This document shows, in pieces, positions 22,657 to 61,473 of a stretch of DNA of 64,000 nt (positions are counted from its first letter, which is position 1; every line of letters begins with the position of its first letter). The stretch lies in contig JAIORK010000036.1 in NCBI GenBank assembly GCA_021108215.1, positions 22,948 through 86,947 on the forward strand, in the 5' to 3' direction. The position numbers were made by a program, and so were the translations under genes. Below the pieces are notes generated by a model. It did not search any database and was not told the origin of the DNA. It saw only the letters and a program-made list of their open reading frames with translations. This DNA comes from a bacterium (GTDB lineage Bacteria > Oederibacteriota > JAAXVQ01 > JAUVAV01).

Positions 22657-23034
22657 CGCTTCCATAAAACGTTTCCCTCGAATAAGTATCTTGCGTACCC
22701 TTTATTCGTTAGACAATTTTTTCGAGAGTTTCATGCATTTATTACTATTTTTTTTATTCTTTTTACGGATTGATATTGAGGTTGTATTAAGGACTCCTAC
22801 AAGGAATATCATGGTTTTTGGATAAGATGGCTGAAATGAGATAAGGGAAATTGGCTGCTGTGCTCACAGAGTTCTCTTCGCATGAGATTCCCCGTTTGGT
22901 ATCTAAGAAAAACAGAAAAAACCAATCTTCACTACTCGGGAATCGGTTACTACGGTCGCAACATCATGTTGCTCCCTGCGTAACCCCGCCTCGACAGCTA
23001 GCCAAAGACATCTCGTTTTTCATCCCAAAAAACT

Positions 23035-53846: not shown

Positions 53847-54815
53847 TCAAGAAAGCGGCCCTGCCGCCATGCTGTCCAGCACAGCTAAAAATGCCGCCTC
53901 TGTCTCACAGGTATTCACCTGTCGCCGGTAAACCGACGCACCCCGCAATCCTTTCAGATACCAAGCTGTATGCTTGCGCATTTCCAGGCGCGCCGTGTGC
54001 CCGCCTTTGAGCGCCTTCAATTGTTGATAATGTCCACGAATAATCCCCACACGCTCATTCCAGCCTGGTTCCAAAAGCGTCTCGCCGGTTTGAAGATATT
54101 GATTGATGTTCTGAAAAACCCAGGGACGTCCCATGGCACCGCGCCCCACCATCACGGCGGCACAGCCGGTCTGATCAAGCATGGCCTTGGCATCCGGGCC
54201 GCTTAGTATATCACCATTGCCTATCACCGGAATGGTCACGACATTGACCACATCTTGAATATGCCGCCAATCGGCCCGCCCCTCAAACCGTTGCGCACGG
54301 GTCCGCGCGTGCACCGCAATAGCCGCTGCCCCCGCAGCTTCAACCCGCTGTGCAATCTCAATCGCGTTGATGGCGGACTGATCCCATCCTATTCGAATTT
54401 TGACAGTAACAGGTACCGGACATTTTTTGACACATGCGACCACAATGGACTGAAGCAATGCCGGTTCTTTGAGAAGTGCAGAGCCGCCGCGATGACGGAC
54501 CACTTTGGGCACCGGACAGCCGAAATTAAGATCCACCATATCTGCTCCGGCTTGCGCTAACTTAACAGAGGCTTCGGCCATGATATCGGGATCTGCACCA
54601 AATAGTTGAAATGCCAAGGGATGCTCTTCTGCCTCTGTTGCCAGCATTTTCAGGGTATTGGGCTGGTTGCGCATAATGCCGTGACAGCTGAGCATTTCCG
54701 AGTAAACCAGTGCCGCGCCATAACCACGGCACAATCTCCGAAAAGGAAGATTTCCCACACCGGCCAATGGCGCCAGGACTGCCTGCCCCTTTATTTTCAA
54801 ATTGCCTATATCCAT
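53847..54815 (-). CDS. dusB: tRNA-dihydrouridine synthase (DusB-like)
   Basis: LAPLAGVGNLPFRRLC...DLNFGCP...HARTRAQ motifs. Confidence 0.88.
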   Translation of the reverse strand: MDIGNLKIKGQAVLAPLAGVGNLPFRRLCRGYGAALVYSEMLSCHGIMRNQPNTLKMLATEAEEHPLAFQLFGADPDIMAEASVKLAQAGADMVDLNFGCPVPKVVRHRGGSALLKEPALLQSIVVACVKKCPVPVTVKIRIGWDQSAINAIEIAQRVEAAGAAAIAVHARTRAQRFEGRADWRHIQDVVNVVTIPVIGNGDILSGPDAKAMLDQTGCAAVMVGRGAMGRPWVFQNINQYLQTGETLLEPGWNERVGIIRGHYQQLKALKGGHTARLEMRKHTAWYLKGLRGASVYRRQVNTCETEAAFLAVLDSMAAGPLS

Positions 54816-54852
54816 TCCTGTCCCTTACTACCAAAAGGCTGTACCCTAATAA

Positions 54853-55176
54853 TTAGTCTACCAACATTTCATTGATCACCGCTTTAATTTGCAGACGGGT
54901 TTTGGCACTTAGCTTTCCAATCTTTTTAACCAATCGGCGTTTGTCAACGGTCCGGATTTGATCAAGAACAACCCATCCTTTTTTATTCTGAAATGTCAGA
55001 CCAACTCTGGTGGGATATTTCTTTGATTGTGTGGTCATTGGCGCAATAATAACAGTTGAAATATACCGATTCATTTCATCAGGAGAAATGACAACACAGG
55101 GTCTGGTTTTCTTGATCTCATGACCCATTGCAGGATCCAGACAAATAAGATAAATATCATATTGAGTGATCACCAC
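54853..55176 (-). CDS. mazF: MazF/PemK-family endoribonuclease toxin
   Basis: YDIYLICLDPAMGHEIKKTRPCVVISPDEMN...VIIAPMTT. Confidence 0.88.
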   Translation of the reverse strand: MVITQYDIYLICLDPAMGHEIKKTRPCVVISPDEMNRYISTVIIAPMTTQSKKYPTRVGLTFQNKKGWVVLDQIRTVDKRRLVKKIGKLSAKTRLQIKAVINEMLVD

Positions 55177-55418
55177 TTCCAGTCACCTTTATCCAGATCA
55201 AGATAATCATCAATAAGCAGGGTATCTTGTTTATTATTGTTCATTGCCAAAAACTTTGCATCCCAGTCTTTCCGAATATCTTTTTTGACTGGTTTTAAAA
55301 CGATACGGTCACTGGTTATTTCGGCATCAACTTGCTCGCCGATATGACATTGCCGCAAAATAGCTTTTGGCAATCGAACACCTCTGGAATTTCCAATTTG
55401 TATAATATCAATCCGCAT
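55170..55418 (-). CDS. mazE: AbrB/MazE-family antitoxin
   Basis: MRIDIIQIGNSRGVRLPKAIL SpoVT/AbrB fold motif. Start at ATG 55418, preceded by GGGAGGTG. 7-nt overlap with mazF. Confidence 0.85.
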   Translation of the reverse strand: MRIDIIQIGNSRGVRLPKAILRQCHIGEQVDAEITSDRIVLKPVKKDIRKDWDAKFLAMNNNKQDTLLIDDYLDLDKGDWKW

Positions 55419-55438
55419 TGTATTCACCTCCCTTACTT

Positions 55439-55467
55439 CAAATGTAATTATATTGTAATTACATTTG
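55439..55467. promoter_or_regulatory. 12-bp perfect inverted repeat upstream of mazE (probable operator)
   Basis: CAAATGTAATTA-TATTG-TAATTACATTTG, 21 nt upstream of the mazE start codon. Confidence 0.55.
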
Positions 55468-55548
55468 TTTGTCAAGCATTCATGCCTATCATCGCTATAG
55501 CGCCGGCACGAAGGACGAAAATGCAAGTCGGCTATATGCATATCTGTC

Positions 55549-58500
55549 TCACCGACTGTATTTTTGCAAAATATTGCGAAACTCCATAAATCCTTTGCTT
55601 AATAAATAATTACAAAACTCTTCTGCTCTCTTTTTACTCGCTTGATGATTCTTACTGAAAACACTCTCGAGTATCGCCATAATCTCATCCTGATGAAACG
55701 CAATGAAATTTATTTCATTTTCCGCTAAAGCTACTAATATTTTAACAACTTCAGTTGGATAAGTTTCAACCATTGTTTTAAGTTGTTCCATAATTGGTGG
55801 AATTGCTTCGATATGCTTGGTTTTTTCCAGCACAAATAATAATTGATCAATCGCCCACTGCGAGTCACACTTCCCGGATCCAAACCAATGCCCAAACGCC
55901 GACATTTCATTCAAAAAGATTTCCGGACTCGTTGATAAAAAAAGCATTTTGCATCGCTTTTCCCACATTTTTTTTATGCGCTGCATTTCCATAGCTGATA
56001 AATTTTCCGTGCTCCCTAATATATCAAAACCGATCATTTGCATTGCTGTCCCTCTTAATTCATCCGGCGCTCTTTTCCAAAAATTTATAAAAATATCCGA
56101 TTCTAATTCCAGTTTTCCGCGAATATAAAACAACATCAGATGCCAAGCCAATCGCTTATCTTTTTCTTCCGCAACATCCTCAATTTCGTTGACTGCCCGA
56201 GCATACTCTGTTTTCAATATTTCAAAAACATTATCATAGGGCTGACACAACAAAATATATGCCTTCCAGGCCACAGCCCAATATTCACGTTCCCTCTCAT
56301 CTTCCGGGAATATCCGGGTCCGTGCTTTGGCTGACCATTCCGGTTTTACTTTTGCCAGCCAAGGAAACCAACGCCCGTATACCGAATGAATAGCCAAGCT
56401 GGAATCTTGCGTATGATCAAGATGTTTATCCAAAATCTTTTCAATTTCAGGCATCATTTCTTCTCTTTTATCCTCTTCAAAATCATCTGTTTGACTCTGG
56501 ATTTTATTTCTGTAAATCCACCACATATAATTCATAACTGCATGCATGGCTTTTCCGCGGGTAGAATTGATTGAACGGGAATATGGTTCCATGTCATGTG
56601 TGTTTTCATATTCACTTGTCGGATCCGAATCTTCGGTTAATGGCTCTAAAACAGTCCAAACGCTTTTCCGTAGCTTTAAGGGGATTAAATTTTTACGCAT
56701 ACCTTCAACCAGGCAGTCTGCTATCTCCCCCCTGGCTTGGCCCCTATCGTCCGCATTTTCCTCTTTTATTTCGCGTGACTGTCGCATCCACTGACCAAGT
56801 TCCAGCATAGACGCCCACTCCAGCTTTGTATTGGTATTACGGATCACTTCTTTAAATCCAAATAATATCCAAAATAAATAATTTGAAGTATATGGACTGG
56901 TAAGCCGGGTAAATTGCCGTGCCTCGACAGAATACAATTCAGGCCTGGCTTGCACCAAAGACGACAGCATTTGCGCCAATCCTTCCGCAGAAACGTCTCT
57001 GACTTCTGCTGATGGTTTCCAAGCGTTTAAAAATTCAACCAGCTTCTCAATTGGCAAGGCGGCTAACTCGTCCAGGGTTTTTGGGCTGGATTCCCATCCC
57101 CCCTCCACTACAACTCCGGTGTTTCTCTTTTTCTCCGCTACACCATATTCTTGAACTAATTTCGTATAATAAGGCTGCCATGCCGCTGGCAAAGCTTGGC
57201 CAAACCTGGCCAGACAATCCCTTTGCCAGTGCCGGCGAACTTGCTCAGCCTCATCTTTCCCGGGTTTTCTGTACCTCTTGTCAAAATCCGGCCCGTCTTC
57301 AACCCATTTTAAGATCATCGCCTGTTTATCCTGCGGTAAAAATCCAAAACCCTTTTCCAGCAGCGGTCCATATTCATCCCAGCATTCACCACTTGCAAAT
57401 AACGCCTTGTCTGATAAATATTTATCTGTCAGTTCCGGCGCTGACCCGGGACAAAGGCTTAATAAATGAAGCGCTATCCGCTTGAAAAGCATCCATGGTT
57501 TCTCGCTTGAAATTTTTACCAAAACATCAATACCTATAGTCGCATCCAATTGCGTGCCTGTCTTTAATATCAAATCGATTAGAATATTTCTAAGCTCGTA
57601 CATCTCATATTGCATTGGTTTTTCAATCTCCGGGCGCCAAAAAAAAGAATAATCATTATTATTTTCCGGTTCCTCATCCTTGGCTTGTGAATATCTCAAT
57701 GCCATATCCAACATCTCGCATAGCCATCGGAACACAGGAACACCGGTTGACTTTGCAAGTTCCGGAATAATCTTCTCCGTTATCTCTTTATACCGGGAAA
57801 TTTCTACTCTTGTTTTCGGATGCGGGCCATCCCAATAGCGCTCTGCGTTTTCTTTGCTCTTCTGCCAGCGAGGATCCGGGAGTATTACCAGCATTTTTTT
57901 CGCCAGCCCGAAAGCTTCCTCCGCTTTTCCTGCCAAAGTATAATACAGGACCAGTTCAGCCAAATGCTTGTCAAGCGGATAAAACAAATATTCATTTACC
58001 ATCCACTTGGCTGCTTTATCTATTAAACTCATAGCTATATCAATCGGCAGATTCAGCGTTGCTTTAACCAAACCATCAATAACATAGACATTTTGTGTGT
58101 CAGGGATGATTAAAATAATATCCGCAACTGCTTGGGGCGCTATTTTGGCCATCCGCACTAAATAACCGGATTCCGCCCAAAATGGAAACGTTATGGAACC
58201 ATCTTCATTTTGTAGCAGCTCCGGGGGACTTCGAAAAACTGATGTATCTTTTAGCCGTGCAAGCCATTTTGGATTAGAGCATCTTTCAAAAAAGTATTTG
58301 CGTATAAAATAGACATCAGGAATTTCTTTGTAGAGTTTTTCCGCATCCTTAGAAGTCGGATTATCTTTTTCCAGTAATTTATCCAGTTCGGCAATCAATC
58401 CCGAGCTATGATTGCGCAACGCATGTAAAATCCGCTTCAAATAAACATCCATGTCCGACAAGTTTTTTTCCAGATCACTTGGAGTCATTCGCGGAGCATC

Positions 58501-59391
58501 CAATCTATCTCGGTGCGCTATTTTTTGCAGGGTTCCAGGCTTTACAAACCACTGCAATTCATCTTCTTCTCTCTCTCCTGTTAATTCTTTTAACAACCTC
58601 TCTATTTCTTTTTTATGCGCATCATGTTCACCTTGTTTTTTTTCTATATCCAGATAAAGTCTCAACACATCCCTGATACTGCTTTCAATTTCTCTAAGCA
58701 AATGCCCCAGCAAATGCGAGCGAGTCTTTAATTCCCCTCCATTTCGTCTTATCCAGCAAATATCCCAATAAAACGCTTCTGCTCCAGGCCCGGCCAGTTC
58801 TTTTAAGTCCTCATAGACTTGTCTTTGGATGCCATCTAATTGAAAATTTTGCTGCGGTCCTAGGGGCATCTCTGCTGCTTTTTTGTCCACCTGCTCAGGC
58901 AATTTTCCCAGCTCTAATATCTTTTCCAATTTCGCAAGCGTCGCAATTGTGATATTTTTTTTCCCTTTTTCAAGAGCGGAAATATCCGGCTGCTTTAAAC
59001 CTGTGCGGCGGGCCAAATCTGCTTGTGTCCAACCCTTCTGTTCTCTGGCCTGTTTTATTTTTCTTCCAATTACCTGATTCTCTTCAGCCGGCGCACCTTT
59101 AATCCGCTTGTTTTTACCTTTTTTTTGTTCAAGCAGTTCATAAACACGCTCCCACTTGGCATAATAATCCGGCGCCTCACTGGTGCGCTTCCATTCCCGC
59201 CGGATTTTCGGCCACACTTCAGTAAATTGCTCTTTTGTGATGAAGGTAAAAATGTCTTTGGGGCGATCATTGCGTGTTAAAACACGGATAATTTTTTTCG
59301 GAAAATCAGGATGTTCAGGAATCTTAAGGATTCGCTCCGTTTCCTTCAAGGCATCTTCCGGCAAATCCCAAAAATAATCTCCGATCTTCAT
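55549..59391 (-). CDS. 1280-aa protein: N-terminal FWD-motif region plus XRE-type HTH plus ~1100-aa uncharacterised helical region
   Basis: Uninterrupted 3.8-kb ORF. GGAGGG lies 9 nt before the ATG. HTH QKGWTQADLARRTGLKQPDISALEKGKKNITIATLAKLEKIL at aa ~120-160. The rest has no motif I recognise. Confidence 0.8.
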   Translation of the reverse strand: MKIGDYFWDLPEDALKETERILKIPEHPDFPKKIIRVLTRNDRPKDIFTFITKEQFTEVWPKIRREWKRTSEAPDYYAKWERVYELLEQKKGKNKRIKGAPAEENQVIGRKIKQAREQKGWTQADLARRTGLKQPDISALEKGKKNITIATLAKLEKILELGKLPEQVDKKAAEMPLGPQQNFQLDGIQRQVYEDLKELAGPGAEAFYWDICWIRRNGGELKTRSHLLGHLLREIESSIRDVLRLYLDIEKKQGEHDAHKKEIERLLKELTGEREEDELQWFVKPGTLQKIAHRDRLDAPRMTPSDLEKNLSDMDVYLKRILHALRNHSSGLIAELDKLLEKDNPTSKDAEKLYKEIPDVYFIRKYFFERCSNPKWLARLKDTSVFRSPPELLQNEDGSITFPFWAESGYLVRMAKIAPQAVADIILIIPDTQNVYVIDGLVKATLNLPIDIAMSLIDKAAKWMVNEYLFYPLDKHLAELVLYYTLAGKAEEAFGLAKKMLVILPDPRWQKSKENAERYWDGPHPKTRVEISRYKEITEKIIPELAKSTGVPVFRWLCEMLDMALRYSQAKDEEPENNNDYSFFWRPEIEKPMQYEMYELRNILIDLILKTGTQLDATIGIDVLVKISSEKPWMLFKRIALHLLSLCPGSAPELTDKYLSDKALFASGECWDEYGPLLEKGFGFLPQDKQAMILKWVEDGPDFDKRYRKPGKDEAEQVRRHWQRDCLARFGQALPAAWQPYYTKLVQEYGVAEKKRNTGVVVEGGWESSPKTLDELAALPIEKLVEFLNAWKPSAEVRDVSAEGLAQMLSSLVQARPELYSVEARQFTRLTSPYTSNYLFWILFGFKEVIRNTNTKLEWASMLELGQWMRQSREIKEENADDRGQARGEIADCLVEGMRKNLIPLKLRKSVWTVLEPLTEDSDPTSEYENTHDMEPYSRSINSTRGKAMHAVMNYMWWIYRNKIQSQTDDFEEDKREEMMPEIEKILDKHLDHTQDSSLAIHSVYGRWFPWLAKVKPEWSAKARTRIFPEDEREREYWAVAWKAYILLCQPYDNVFEILKTEYARAVNEIEDVAEEKDKRLAWHLMLFYIRGKLELESDIFINFWKRAPDELRGTAMQMIGFDILGSTENLSAMEMQRIKKMWEKRCKMLFLSTSPEIFLNEMSAFGHWFGSGKCDSQWAIDQLLFVLEKTKHIEAIPPIMEQLKTMVETYPTEVVKILVALAENEINFIAFHQDEIMAILESVFSKNHQASKKRAEEFCNYLLSKGFMEFRNILQKYSR

Positions 59392-60110
59392 GAGAGTTCA
59401 CCCTCCAAAAACGCGCTCAATTCATCATCTAAATGACGGATAATCATTTTTGATTTGAGTTTGCGGTCATAAATGGCATCAGCATAATCCAAATAATCTT
59501 GCTCAAACTTTTGGGTTGAAAATCTCTTGCGCCACCCTATCATCGTTCGCTGATAGGTGCGTGGAATCGTTTTTAAAAATGAATGTAATGGCTCGATCTT
59601 TTTGGACAAATAATAGAGATCAATAACATCACGCGGGACATTTCGACCAACAGCTTGCGGTTCTCCATGTCCATTCTTCTCAGGTACAATTCCGGTAATC
59701 GCGATTATTTTTTGAAAATAAATCCGATTGACATCATACACCGGTATACCCTTAATTTTCTTAATAAAATTTTCCCTGGTTAGCTGCGGAAGGACATCTT
59801 CTACGAAATCAAGTTTCAATGATTCGGAAGTTTTCTCTATAGGGATGGTATAAAAATGAACATTCATTTTCCCGGGATGAGTAATTTCATCCTTGAATTC
59901 CGGTTTGTATCCACCTTTTTTTATTTCTTCAAGAATCGAAACAATTTCCCCATAATTAAACTCAAGTGAAAAGAAATCCAGATCGCGTGAAAAACGATGT
60001 TGAAGATAAAAAATCTCCAATGCCGTCCCGCCGGCCAAAGCAAAATTCCCGGGATTTTTGGAAAATAAGTTCAAAATTTCCAGATGTAATTTTCGCAGTC
60101 TTTTATTCAC
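59388..60110 (-). CDS. AbiEii/AbiGii-family (DUF1814) nucleotidyltransferase toxin-like protein
   Basis: Pol-beta NTase signature AGGTALEIFYLQHRFSRDLDFF, KLDFVED, VPRDVIDLYYLSK. GTG start. The TGA overlaps the downstream ATG (ATGA). Confidence 0.75.
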   Translation of the reverse strand: MNKRLRKLHLEILNLFSKNPGNFALAGGTALEIFYLQHRFSRDLDFFSLEFNYGEIVSILEEIKKGGYKPEFKDEITHPGKMNVHFYTIPIEKTSESLKLDFVEDVLPQLTRENFIKKIKGIPVYDVNRIYFQKIIAITGIVPEKNGHGEPQAVGRNVPRDVIDLYYLSKKIEPLHSFLKTIPRTYQRTMIGWRKRFSTQKFEQDYLDYADAIYDRKLKSKMIIRHLDDELSAFLEGELS

Positions 60111-60150
60111 ATCAACACCGCCAACAAAATATAGCTTATATGCTATATTG

Positions 60151-60179
60151 ATTATAGTTTAAAAGCTATATTTTGTCAA
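60151..60179 (-). promoter_or_regulatory. perfect consensus sigma70 promoter of the AbiEii-like operon
   Basis: Minus strand TTGACA-N17-TATAAT. The -35 overlaps the tsaD stop codon. Flanked by the 13-bp inverted repeat CAAAATATAGCTT / AAGCTATATTTTG (60125-60137, 60163-60175). Confidence 0.7.
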
Positions 60180-61192
60180 CTATCCATTGAAGCAAGATTG
60201 GCATAAGCCGGCAAATCCCAAGCAGAGCGCCGACCCGCTGCCAAATAGCGCGCGCCTACGGATGCTATCATGGCGGCGTTGTCTGTACACCACTCCACCG
60301 GCGGGCTAAAAAACGGGATACCCTCTTGATGTGCGGCCGCAGAAAACGCCTCCCGCAAAGACCGGTTGGCGGCAACCCCGCCGGTCAGTACCAAAGCATG
60401 TACCTCATGCTTTTGAATAACCGCCAGGGTTTTGCGTACCAAATCCTCAATAACCGTCTTTTGAAACCCGGCGGCAATCTCTGCCGCCACCAATTCTTTT
60501 CCTGCTTTACGACTGCTCTCGAGCAAATAACGAACCGCAGTTTTTATCCCGGAATAGGAAAAATCCGCAGACCCGTCTTTCATACGCGGAAGGGTGAACC
60601 GAATACCGGATTGCGGGTGATTCTTGGCTGCCGCCTCAATGGCCGGACCACCGGGATATGGCATCCCCAACAATTTGGCAACTTTATCAAATGCCTCCCC
60701 CACCGCATCATCCCGGGTACTGGCCAGCAATTCATACTCCGGAAGATCGCCCGCTGTCACCAGATAAAGATTAGTATGTCCGCCGGATGCAACCAGCCCG
60801 ACAAAGGGATAGGGTAAAGCGGGATGATTCAATTCCGAAGCAAACAGATGGCCTTCCAGATGGTTAATGCCAATAAAAGGCAGTTGACGTGCAAAAGCAG
60901 CTGCCTTGGCCCATGTCAACCCAACCAATAAAGCACCCATAAGACCGGGACCGCAGGTGGCGGCAATGCCGTCAATATCATCCCAGGATAACCCGGCCTG
61001 AGAAAATGTCTCATCAATGACCCGGGGTAGATCGCGCAGATGCTGCCGCGAGGCAAGCTCCGGAACCACCCCGCCATAAGGCGCATGCACCTTGAGCTGC
61101 GATGCCACAACAGAGGCAAGCACTTCCCGCTGCTCTGTGACCACGGCTGCTGATGTTTCATCACAAGATGATTCAATGCCGAGTATTTTCAT
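60176..61192 (-). CDS. tsaD: tRNA N6-adenosine threonylcarbamoyltransferase TsaD
   Basis: MKILGIESSCDETSAAVV...GINHLEGHL...VLTGGVAAN. Confidence 0.95.
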   Translation of the reverse strand: MKILGIESSCDETSAAVVTEQREVLASVVASQLKVHAPYGGVVPELASRQHLRDLPRVIDETFSQAGLSWDDIDGIAATCGPGLMGALLVGLTWAKAAAFARQLPFIGINHLEGHLFASELNHPALPYPFVGLVASGGHTNLYLVTAGDLPEYELLASTRDDAVGEAFDKVAKLLGMPYPGGPAIEAAAKNHPQSGIRFTLPRMKDGSADFSYSGIKTAVRYLLESSRKAGKELVAAEIAAGFQKTVIEDLVRKTLAVIQKHEVHALVLTGGVAANRSLREAFSAAAHQEGIPFFSPPVEWCTDNAAMIASVGARYLAAGRRSAWDLPAYANLASMDS

Positions 61193-61255: not shown

Positions 61256-61391
61256 ATTGTGCCAAGTATTTGTTTTATTCAGACGAGAAACAAAAAAAAC
61301 CGGATGATTCACCGTAAATGCTGCTTGACGAATCGATTTGCTTTATCCAATAATACCGTTTCATCTGAATAAAACAAACACTTGGCACAAT
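61256..61391. repeat. 136-bp element with ~33-bp imperfect terminal inverted repeats (MITE-like or structured RNA)
   Basis: ATTGTGCCAAGTATTTGTTTTATTCAGACGAGAAAC versus the reverse complement of GTTTCATCTGAATAAAACAAACACTTGGCACAAT. The arms are separated by ~66 nt. Confidence 0.6.
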
Positions 61392-61473
61392 CCATTAAAT
61401 TATTTTAATCCCCGGCGTAAGCCCCGACTGAAAAAATACCGTTCTTTGGAACGCTGTCACAGCCTGTGAATTT

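Follow-up and report, generated by a model that had tools for sequence, protein, structure and literature searches.

What kind of system is formed by an AbiEii-like nucleotidyltransferase (NTase) gene whose end overlaps the start of a gene for a protein of 1280 amino acids (aa)? The question is raised by a locus between tsaD and dusB on contig JAIORK010000036.1 of an Oederibacteriota bacterium (GenBank assembly GCA_021108215.1), analysed here within a stretch of 64,000 nucleotides (forward-strand positions 22,948 to 86,947), hereafter the window. How phage infection switches on NTase toxin modules of the AbiE/MenT type becomes open to testing with the fusion architecture found here, which could show how infection does so for AbiEii-type modules. 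A preliminary description of the locus, made from its letters alone, had suggested an antitoxin/sensor fusion with a giant domain of no recognisable kind. An antitoxin-like partner and a sensor are indeed combined in the long protein (below, the giant protein), while the giant domain proved neither unrecognisable nor undescribed, as it consists of a HEPN-like domain and a sensor of the Dsr1/Avs7 type. The domain families are all known or at least catalogued, and what is new is how they are wired together. The reading that we favour, tentatively and with a probability of roughly 45%, is that of a hybrid abortive-infection/defence operon that arose by gene fusion, in which the partner of a toxin was wired to phage sensing.

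The NTase and its canonical partner

The 240-aa protein is a bona fide member of the AbiEii/DUF1814 family, as had been proposed from its motifs. It matches Pfam AbiEii (PF08843) with 71 bits (cut-off 22.5, E=1.9e-19) and 19 AbiEii models of PADLOC (E=8.6e-14), and catalytic motifs I-II (hG[G/S]...DhD) are present. The residues invariant in 24 NTase homologues include G27, G28, D43, D45, K99, D101, D105, R156, R160, D161 and D164, and because these family residues do not vary across the 24 sequences, the catalytic core (GG...DxD) is intact. The protein presumably acts as a growth-arresting toxin of the AbiEii/MenT type. An indexed search yielded 237 homologues, and in a species-representative genome set the subfamily occupies 209 loci, mostly in metagenome-assembled genomes (MAGs) of Omnitrophota, Elusimicrobiota, Planctomycetota, WOR-1 and Nitrospirota.

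The gene downstream of the NTase was examined at 77 evaluable loci. The NTase comes first at all 77, as it does in the window, and at 73 it is followed by a free-standing gene for a partner of 148-177 aa (typically ~168 aa) with an XRE-type helix-turn-helix (HTH); a 4-nucleotide (4-nt) overlap of the partner with the NTase stop occurs at about 67 of the 77, as counted from a table of the loci. The inverted gene order and the lack of an AbiEi-sized gene, both singled out as special in the preliminary description, are the rule in this subfamily and not a peculiarity of the window. Of 78 downstream partners, 77 are homologous to giant aa 1-170, with identities of 35-70% and a median of 43%, and five aligned partner sequences have 47 invariant columns in common. 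For these reasons the first ~165 residues of the giant protein are, judged by homology, the standard ~168-aa partner of the NTase subfamily, made up of an N-terminal FWD domain and an XRE HTH. A likeness of the FWD region to small proteins encoded beside AbiEii-like NTases, which had been suggested earlier, is borne out by these matches. The fused versions of NTase and partner retain every family-invariant residue. The 209 species-level loci represent a widespread two-gene module, NTase first and then the FWD+XRE partner under a conserved operator, that is unlike the described AbiE pairs.

The XRE-type HTH, previously placed at aa ~120-160, is matched by Pfam HTH_3 at giant aa 112-160 (E=2e-13), and its nearest PDB sequences are HipB antitoxins. 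PADLOC returned XRE-type HTH models only for giant aa 1-170 and no AbiEi model, with the N-terminus of a relative of the giant protein, P0264, serving as positive control (E=1.5e-57). A confident structure model of the FWD domain, built from a 3-sequence alignment, has five helices at a predicted local distance difference test score (pLDDT) of 84.6, and a fold search with it gave no informative structural relative. Sequence searches of the PDB with the giant protein alone and with the family profile gave HTH matches or nothing, so that neither for the sensor nor for the HEPN-like domain is a solved relative detectable by sequence. The FWD+HTH partner presumably neutralises the NTase. A second kind of partner extension was seen in a candidate division FCPU426 MAG (L011 / L004:4711-6018), where the NTase partner has 435 aa, consisting of FWD+HTH and a C-terminal extension of ~270 aa that has no Pfam match and is unrelated to the HEPN-like domain and sensor.

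Transcription of the pair would start from a sigma-70-type promoter that scores 12/12 against the consensus and is overlaid by two tandem palindromes, AATATAG-N8-CTATA(A/T)T (Table 1). The right arm of the first palindrome forms part of the -10 box, and the second palindrome lies just downstream. Both matches to this motif in the window are found here, against 0.05 expected. At 52 of the 77 related loci the palindrome lies no more than 120 nt before the NTase, with at least two copies at 22 loci, whereas 713 kb elsewhere in these loci contain only 6 hits; canonical and fused versions of the partner are alike preceded by it. The XRE HTH may bind at the tandem palindromes, and because the motif is specific to the promoter and conserved across loci, the comparative evidence strongly suggests that the HTH module autorepresses the operon, although repression itself is inferred.

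The type IV toxin-antitoxin/abortive-infection system AbiE and the related MenAT systems (Dy et al. 2014, PMC3985639; Xu et al. 2023, PMC10435456) resemble the window in having a pol-beta-type NTase of the DUF1814/AbiEii family with intact motifs. Further points of likeness are a bicistronic operon, a 4-nt overlap and a DNA-binding partner, and the palindromes over the window's promoter suggest negative autoregulation, which in AbiE is exerted by the DNA-binding partner. The order of the genes differs, since the NTase is first in the window whereas the regulator is first in AbiE and precedes the NTase in the described AbiE-type pairs COG5340-COG2253 and COG4861-COG4849 (PMC3985639). The partner differs as well: FWD and XRE HTH are unrelated to AbiEi (COG5340, a winged HTH (wHTH) plus a C-terminal domain) or to COG4861, and in the window the partner is ~1,100 aa longer by its HEPN-like domain and sensor. 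The AbiE toxin is bacteriostatic, binds GTP and is neutralised without a direct interaction.

The receptor part of the giant protein

No motif had been recognised in the C-terminal ~1100 aa when the locus was first described. The PADLOC Dsr1 model PDLC04166, however, matches giant aa 335-1279 (E=5e-46) over profile positions 296-1225 of 1227, which is all but the SIR2 part, and homologues of the giant protein give the same sensor-only pattern with E-values down to 1e-56. When the family profile was aligned by hhalign with P0283, a Dsr1-type protein that bears SIR2_2 and has its SIR2 domain at aa 152-279, the probability was 100% (E=1e-41), over giant aa ~348-1275 only; the sensor of the window is ~20% identical to P0283. 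By this homology, giant aa ~346-1280 are a Dsr1/Avs7-type sensor. Avs7 and Dsr1 share a bilobed sensor that is combined with at least 20 effector types (PMC13581612; preprint PMC12803255), and the phage major capsid protein triggers SeAvs7 and EcDsr1, the only two for which this was shown (PMC13581612).

Over its C-terminal ~930 aa the giant protein is homologous, end to end, to the sensor region of Dsr1 (defence-associated sirtuin 1; Gao et al. 2020, Garb et al. 2022). Dsr1 differs in its N-terminus, a SIR2 NADase, where the giant protein has the HEPN-like domain instead and no SIR2 hit in Pfam; the window further adds the N-terminal FWD+HTH and a coupled upstream NTase gene. Because PDLC04166 scores SIR2-less proteins very strongly, a pipeline that uses this model could mislabel them as DSR1, which is a hazard for annotation. 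The supposedly undescribed long protein has in this way turned out to belong, by its sensor, to a characterised family, whereas its fusion and its linkage to an NTase are not characterised. Sensor-only relatives of ~850-970 aa were also seen (P0008, P0011, P0012 and P0015, in alignment A1), which start at FFERLxxPxWL; since the HEPN-like domain is absent from them, their effectors, if any, would be encoded separately. In a neighbour-joining (NJ) tree the branch of the sensor pair formed by the window and P0002 is markedly longer than those of other family members, perhaps because selection was relaxed or became diversifying once the fusion had occurred.

Typical members of the receptor family start at giant residue ~190 with a domain of ~150 aa that carries the motifs SHLxGHLxREIES and AHRxxLxxPR. 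Residues C212, H226, H230, R233, E234, W281, H293, R294 and R301 are invariant in eleven sequences of this domain. An AlphaFold2 model of aa 187-345 (pLDDT 83) has as its closest structural neighbours the HEPN toxins of HEPN-MNT (minimal nucleotidyltransferase) pairs, including an AMPylated HEPN (8xdj, 7ae2, 5yep). We regard the domain with moderate confidence as HEPN-like, and as a putative RNase.

An exhaustive profile search found 1,269 representative clusters with the HEPN-like domain, 479 of them at E<=1e-30. The family has a modal length of ~1,130 aa and bears the domain at its extreme N-terminus; among the top 150 proteins, 87 extend to the end of the sensor. A word-indexed search had returned 16 relatives, but the apparent rarity of the family was rejected as an artefact of sensitivity in view of these 1,269 clusters; a further indexed search, for which the profile was built from the members with N-terminal extensions, did not recover those members themselves. 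The same N-domain was recognised (hhalign 99.75%) in a Streptomyces plasmid protein annotated as 'hypothetical' (WP_331721222.1). An effector labelled 'HEPN-like RNase' has been drawn on the sensor of a protein of Streptomyces sp. NBC_00271 (PMC13581612), and we infer that the window's family is that of the NBC_00271 protein, with which the Streptomyces plasmid match fits. In its core architecture the giant protein resembles this and other proteins with the Avs7/Dsr1 sensor (PMC13581612), since a bilobed, TPR-like sensor comes after a HEPN-like domain. In such single-gene systems, however, the effector stands at the extreme N-terminus, whereas the window adds 186 N-terminal residues (FWD+HTH) and an overlapping NTase gene.

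In four relatives (P0138, P0147, P0243 and P0276) the HEPN-like N-domain is duplicated in tandem; the two copies would form an intramolecular pseudo-dimer, which fits a HEPN activated by dimerisation. Unfused HEPN-like+sensor genes adjoin type I restriction-modification (R-M) systems, integrases, transposases and toxin-antitoxin (TA) genes. The association with type I R-M was observed repeatedly (L002:6457-10443; L093:6001-15652; L090:4338-4910), and in L002 the HEPN-like+sensor gene begins 1 nt after a half-size hsdS that ends an hsdR-hsdM-hsdS operon.

The structural neighbours of aa 187-345 invite another explanation of the locus, in which the NTase regulates the HEPN-like domain in the manner of the type VII HEPN-MNT systems, nucleotidylating the giant protein to silence its RNase until a trigger arrives. 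The NTase gene is translationally coupled to the HEPN-like-bearing gene, and in the type VII pairs (7ae2, 8xdj, 5yep) a gene for an NTase of the pol-beta superfamily likewise adjoins a gene for a HEPN fold. Those pairs consist of a minimal MNT and a HEPN with the Rx4HxY motif, however, whereas the NTase of the window is of the DUF1814/AbiEii family and the motif, with its AMPylated tyrosine, is absent from the HEPN-like domain. Furthermore, the ancestral role of the NTase cannot have been the control of a HEPN, because the partner is without a HEPN-like domain at 73 of the 77 loci, and most HEPN-like+sensor proteins have no NTase neighbour. We consider this explanation improbable.

Recurrence of the fusion and its interpretation

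The same architecture of FWD, HTH, HEPN-like domain and sensor stands behind the NTase at three of the 77 loci, namely L010 (1249 aa, Goldiibacteriota), L016 (1299 aa) and L013 (at least 725 aa, running to a contig end, Firestonebacteria). The sensors of these three are 37-64% identical to that of the window, and all three loci keep the NTase and its 4-nt overlap, the fusion being retained with the NTase at only 37-62% identity; with the window they make four loci in one clade. An open reading frame (ORF) of 1,250-1,300 aa is intact in four divergent lineages. Translational coupling of the two genes, proposed in the preliminary description, is supported by the ATGA shared by NTase stop and giant start, and the pair recurs in further genomes where its surroundings are not the same. 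In P0256 (1307 aa), a divergent fusion, the FWD+HTH part is 32% identical; the gene upstream overlaps it by 4 nt and resembles, by eye, the C-terminus of the NTase family in its C-terminal 21 residues.

Other DNA-binding modules are found on the same HEPN-like+sensor scaffold. P0264, the control mentioned above, is encoded at L090:5001-8984 as a protein of 1,327 aa, in an ORF read through masked N-runs, and has canonical AbiEi at its N-terminus; the gene upstream encodes a 190-aa protein with an EcoEI_R_C domain, and the contig ends 216 nt downstream. In P0282 a wHTH of the HVO_A0114/MarR-like type is fused to the scaffold. With AbiEi present on this scaffold in L090, one receptor has captured two unrelated families of AbiEii partners (FWD+XRE and AbiEi). 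The Dsr1/Avs7 scaffold takes N-terminal regulatory or antitoxin modules (FWD+XRE, AbiEi, MarR-like wHTH) besides effectors.

If the locus is a hybrid abortive-infection/defence operon, a flexible linker would tie the partner to an immune receptor that is complete within one protein, with the HEPN-like domain as its effector and a sensor of the Dsr1/Avs7 type. In an uninfected cell the giant protein would sit on the operator, with expression low, the NTase held in check and the HEPN-like domain monomeric and inactive. When a phage infects, one of its conserved proteins would bind the sensor, the likeliest candidate being the major capsid protein if EcDsr1 and SeAvs7 are taken as analogues, and a conformational change or oligomerisation would switch on the HEPN-like RNase. 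The tethered partner would at the same time be pulled off the DNA and off the NTase, so that the operon would be derepressed and the NTase released. Two routes would then shut translation down, and the phage cycle would stay incomplete.

Because the partner module is covalently attached to the receptor, one event could lift both the repression and the neutralisation of the NTase. That the locus is such a sensor-gated antitoxin, in which the binding of a phage structural protein is a single recognition event that fires two translation-blocking effectors, a HEPN-like RNase acting in cis and an NTase acting in trans, is a more specific proposal that we hold to be rather doubtful. If true, no AbiE-family toxin module before it would have had a pattern-recognition receptor built in, and the fusion of AbiEi to the receptor would be an independent origin of the same logic. 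In CapRel(SJ46), a fused toxin-antitoxin (Zhang et al. 2022, Nature), an antitoxin element joined to phage-capsid sensing reportedly gates a translation-targeting toxin. The likeness to the window is a hypothesis, in concept only and with no homology, as CapRel(SJ46) is one polypeptide with a RelA/SpoT-like toxin, whereas the window has a separate NTase and a sensor of the Dsr1/Avs7 type. The welding of a toxin's DNA-binding partner to a receptor with capsid-detecting relatives offers a concrete design with which to test whether sensing is transmitted to an antitoxin.

The two halves of the giant protein may, on the other hand, be independent systems that were merely joined, the HTH giving autoregulated expression to a potentially toxic receptor with no coupling of sensing to the NTase. 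A HEPN-like+sensor defence gene would then have come to lie downstream of a TA-like module of NTase and XRE HTH, and have fused to the HTH gene. We rate this nearly as likely as the hybrid operon because the AbiEi fusion of L090 and the wHTH fusion P0282 come without an NTase, that is, with no visible toxin partner. It is also in keeping with a linker between partner module and receptor that is ~25 aa long and charged/Pro-rich, with a receptor family that is normally encoded by a single gene, with the frequent clustering and shuffling of defence genes, and with the many effector types that the sensor is paired with. It accounts less well for the retention of fusion, NTase and 4-nt overlap despite divergence to 37-46% identity in at least three further genomes, or for the overlapping upstream gene of P0256, and if an arbitrary HTH sufficed, it would be strange that both FWD+XRE and AbiEi were captured.

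Several observations weigh against the hybrid operon with its wired sensing. The linker, long and flexible-looking, is compatible with functionally independent halves. No AbiEii gene lies beside the L090 fusion in the 4.9 kb upstream and 216 nt downstream that are in view, and no co-directional upstream gene is present at the locus of P0282; because neither fusion shows a toxin partner, N-terminal DNA-binding modules may have been acquired simply for autoregulation. A Foldseek search of the PDB with the HEPN-like model gave no significant hit, the matches with the best TM-score and the best probability being HEPN toxins, and the domain lacks the canonical Rx4-6H motif, no invariant copy of which stands in its alignment. 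Since the sensor is so distant from P0283, its ligand may differ from that of known sensors. Finally, the NJ tree of the HEPN-like+sensor part is star-like and has no bootstrap; in this tree a single clade unites the window with P0002 and L016, and P0256, L090 and P0282 are scattered, each with different unfused relatives, which suggests at least four independent N-terminal acquisitions.

As to earlier reports of such an operon, the words AbiE, antitoxin, helix-turn-helix and nucleotidyltransferase are absent from the main text of PMC13581612 (HTH was checked in the preprint version only), and full-text searches of the literature on AbiEii together with XRE, with HEPN/fusion or with DUF1814/HTH listed no title or abstract that describes the arrangement of the window.

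The island and its neighbours

All genes from tsaD to dusB lie on the minus strand, in the order tsaD, NTase, giant protein, mazE, mazF, dusB (Table 1). The ATGA shared by the NTase stop and the giant start (59388-59391) was read in the sequence, and a ribosome-binding-site-like GGAGGG is located 9 nt 5' of the giant ATG. The NTase, giant, mazE and mazF genes lie in a low-GC island (54750-60250) with a GC content of 0.36-0.45, against 0.52-0.55 in tsaD and dusB. The layout given in the preliminary description (ORFs, ATGA overlap, GGAGGG, perfect promoter over the tsaD stop, AT-rich island, and tsaD and dusB as flanks) was read or computed directly and holds in every point.

Table 1. Coordinates in the window of the genes, protein domains and regulatory elements of the island and its flanks.
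Feature	Position	Strand	Notes
tsaD	60176-61192	-	Pfam PF00814, 1e-89; TGA stop at 60178-60176
Sigma-70-type promoter TTGACA-N17-TATAAT	60151-60179	-	-35 box 60179-60174 overlaps tsaD stop; -10 box 60156-60151
Two tandem palindromes AATATAG-N8-CTATA(A/T)T, operator-like	60129-60171	.	cores 60152-60171 and 60129-60148
AbiEii/DUF1814-family NTase, putative toxin	59388-60110	-	240 aa, GTG start; PF08843
Giant protein gene	55549-59391	-	1280-aa ORF
Giant aa 1-95, FWD domain (N-terminal half of canonical NTase partner)	59107-59391	-	small, helical
Giant aa 108-162, XRE/Cro-type HTH (C-terminal half of canonical partner)	58906-59070	-	Pfam HTH_3
Giant aa ~187-345, HEPN-like domain, putative RNase effector	58357-58833	-	takes SIR2 slot of Dsr1
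Giant aa ~346-1280, Dsr1/Avs7-type alpha-helical (TPR-like) sensor	55552-58356	-	PADLOC Dsr1, hhalign
mazEF promoter, perfect TTGACA-N17-TATAAT	55475-55447	-	consensus scan
mazE antitoxin, separate neighbouring module	55170-55418	-	82 aa; Pfam MazE_antitoxin E=3.8e-7
mazF/pemK toxin, separate neighbouring module	54853-55176	-	107 aa; PemK_toxin E=2.2e-32; NCBIfam MazF E=6e-17
dusB	53847-54815	-	Pfam PF01207, 1e-96

The same arrangement from tsaD to dusB is present in at least five assemblies from different samples. Four full-length copies (L095-L098) are 100% nucleotide-identical across 4,562 bases of the NTase and giant genes, and the fifth (L099), on a truncated contig, lies outside this comparison. 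An assembly chimera or a frameshift artefact as the source of the long ORF was rejected, because the arrangement recurs in at least five assemblies and the four copies are identical.

Between the giant gene and dusB, within the low-GC island, lies a mazEF pair (54853-55418) that the preliminary description had overlooked. A PemK/MazF toxin gene is preceded by that of an AbrB-type MazE antitoxin, and the 82-aa mazE gene call recurs in independent assemblies. An orthologous fused locus (L001/L010) is without the pair.

That a low-GC islet between housekeeping genes lies beside mazEF would also fit an ordinary chromosomal TA or addiction module that does not serve defence against phages and in which the C-terminal region of the giant protein is degenerate or a structural remnant, and no copy was obtained by the phage and plasmid searches: the phage sequence search gave zero matches, the plasmid search distant matches only, all below 60% identity, and the PHROGs search HTH matches only. 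The invariant residues of the HEPN-like domain are all retained in a protein with a full-length sensor, however, the ORF has stayed intact in divergent lineages, and homologues occur inside islands of R-M and mobile-element genes. We hold this explanation, too, to be improbable.

At the edges of the island no flanking att-like direct repeats, no tRNA nearby and no credible Rfam family were found. A near-perfect hairpin with a stem of ~33 bp is located at 61256-61392 (minus strand), between a ctpB-like protease gene and tsaD, with a minimum free energy of -61.9 kcal/mol (z -9.3 against shuffles) and a sub-threshold Rfam match to MIR2599 that is surely spurious. It could be an element resembling a miniature inverted-repeat transposable element or a terminal inverted repeat, or an unusually large terminator.

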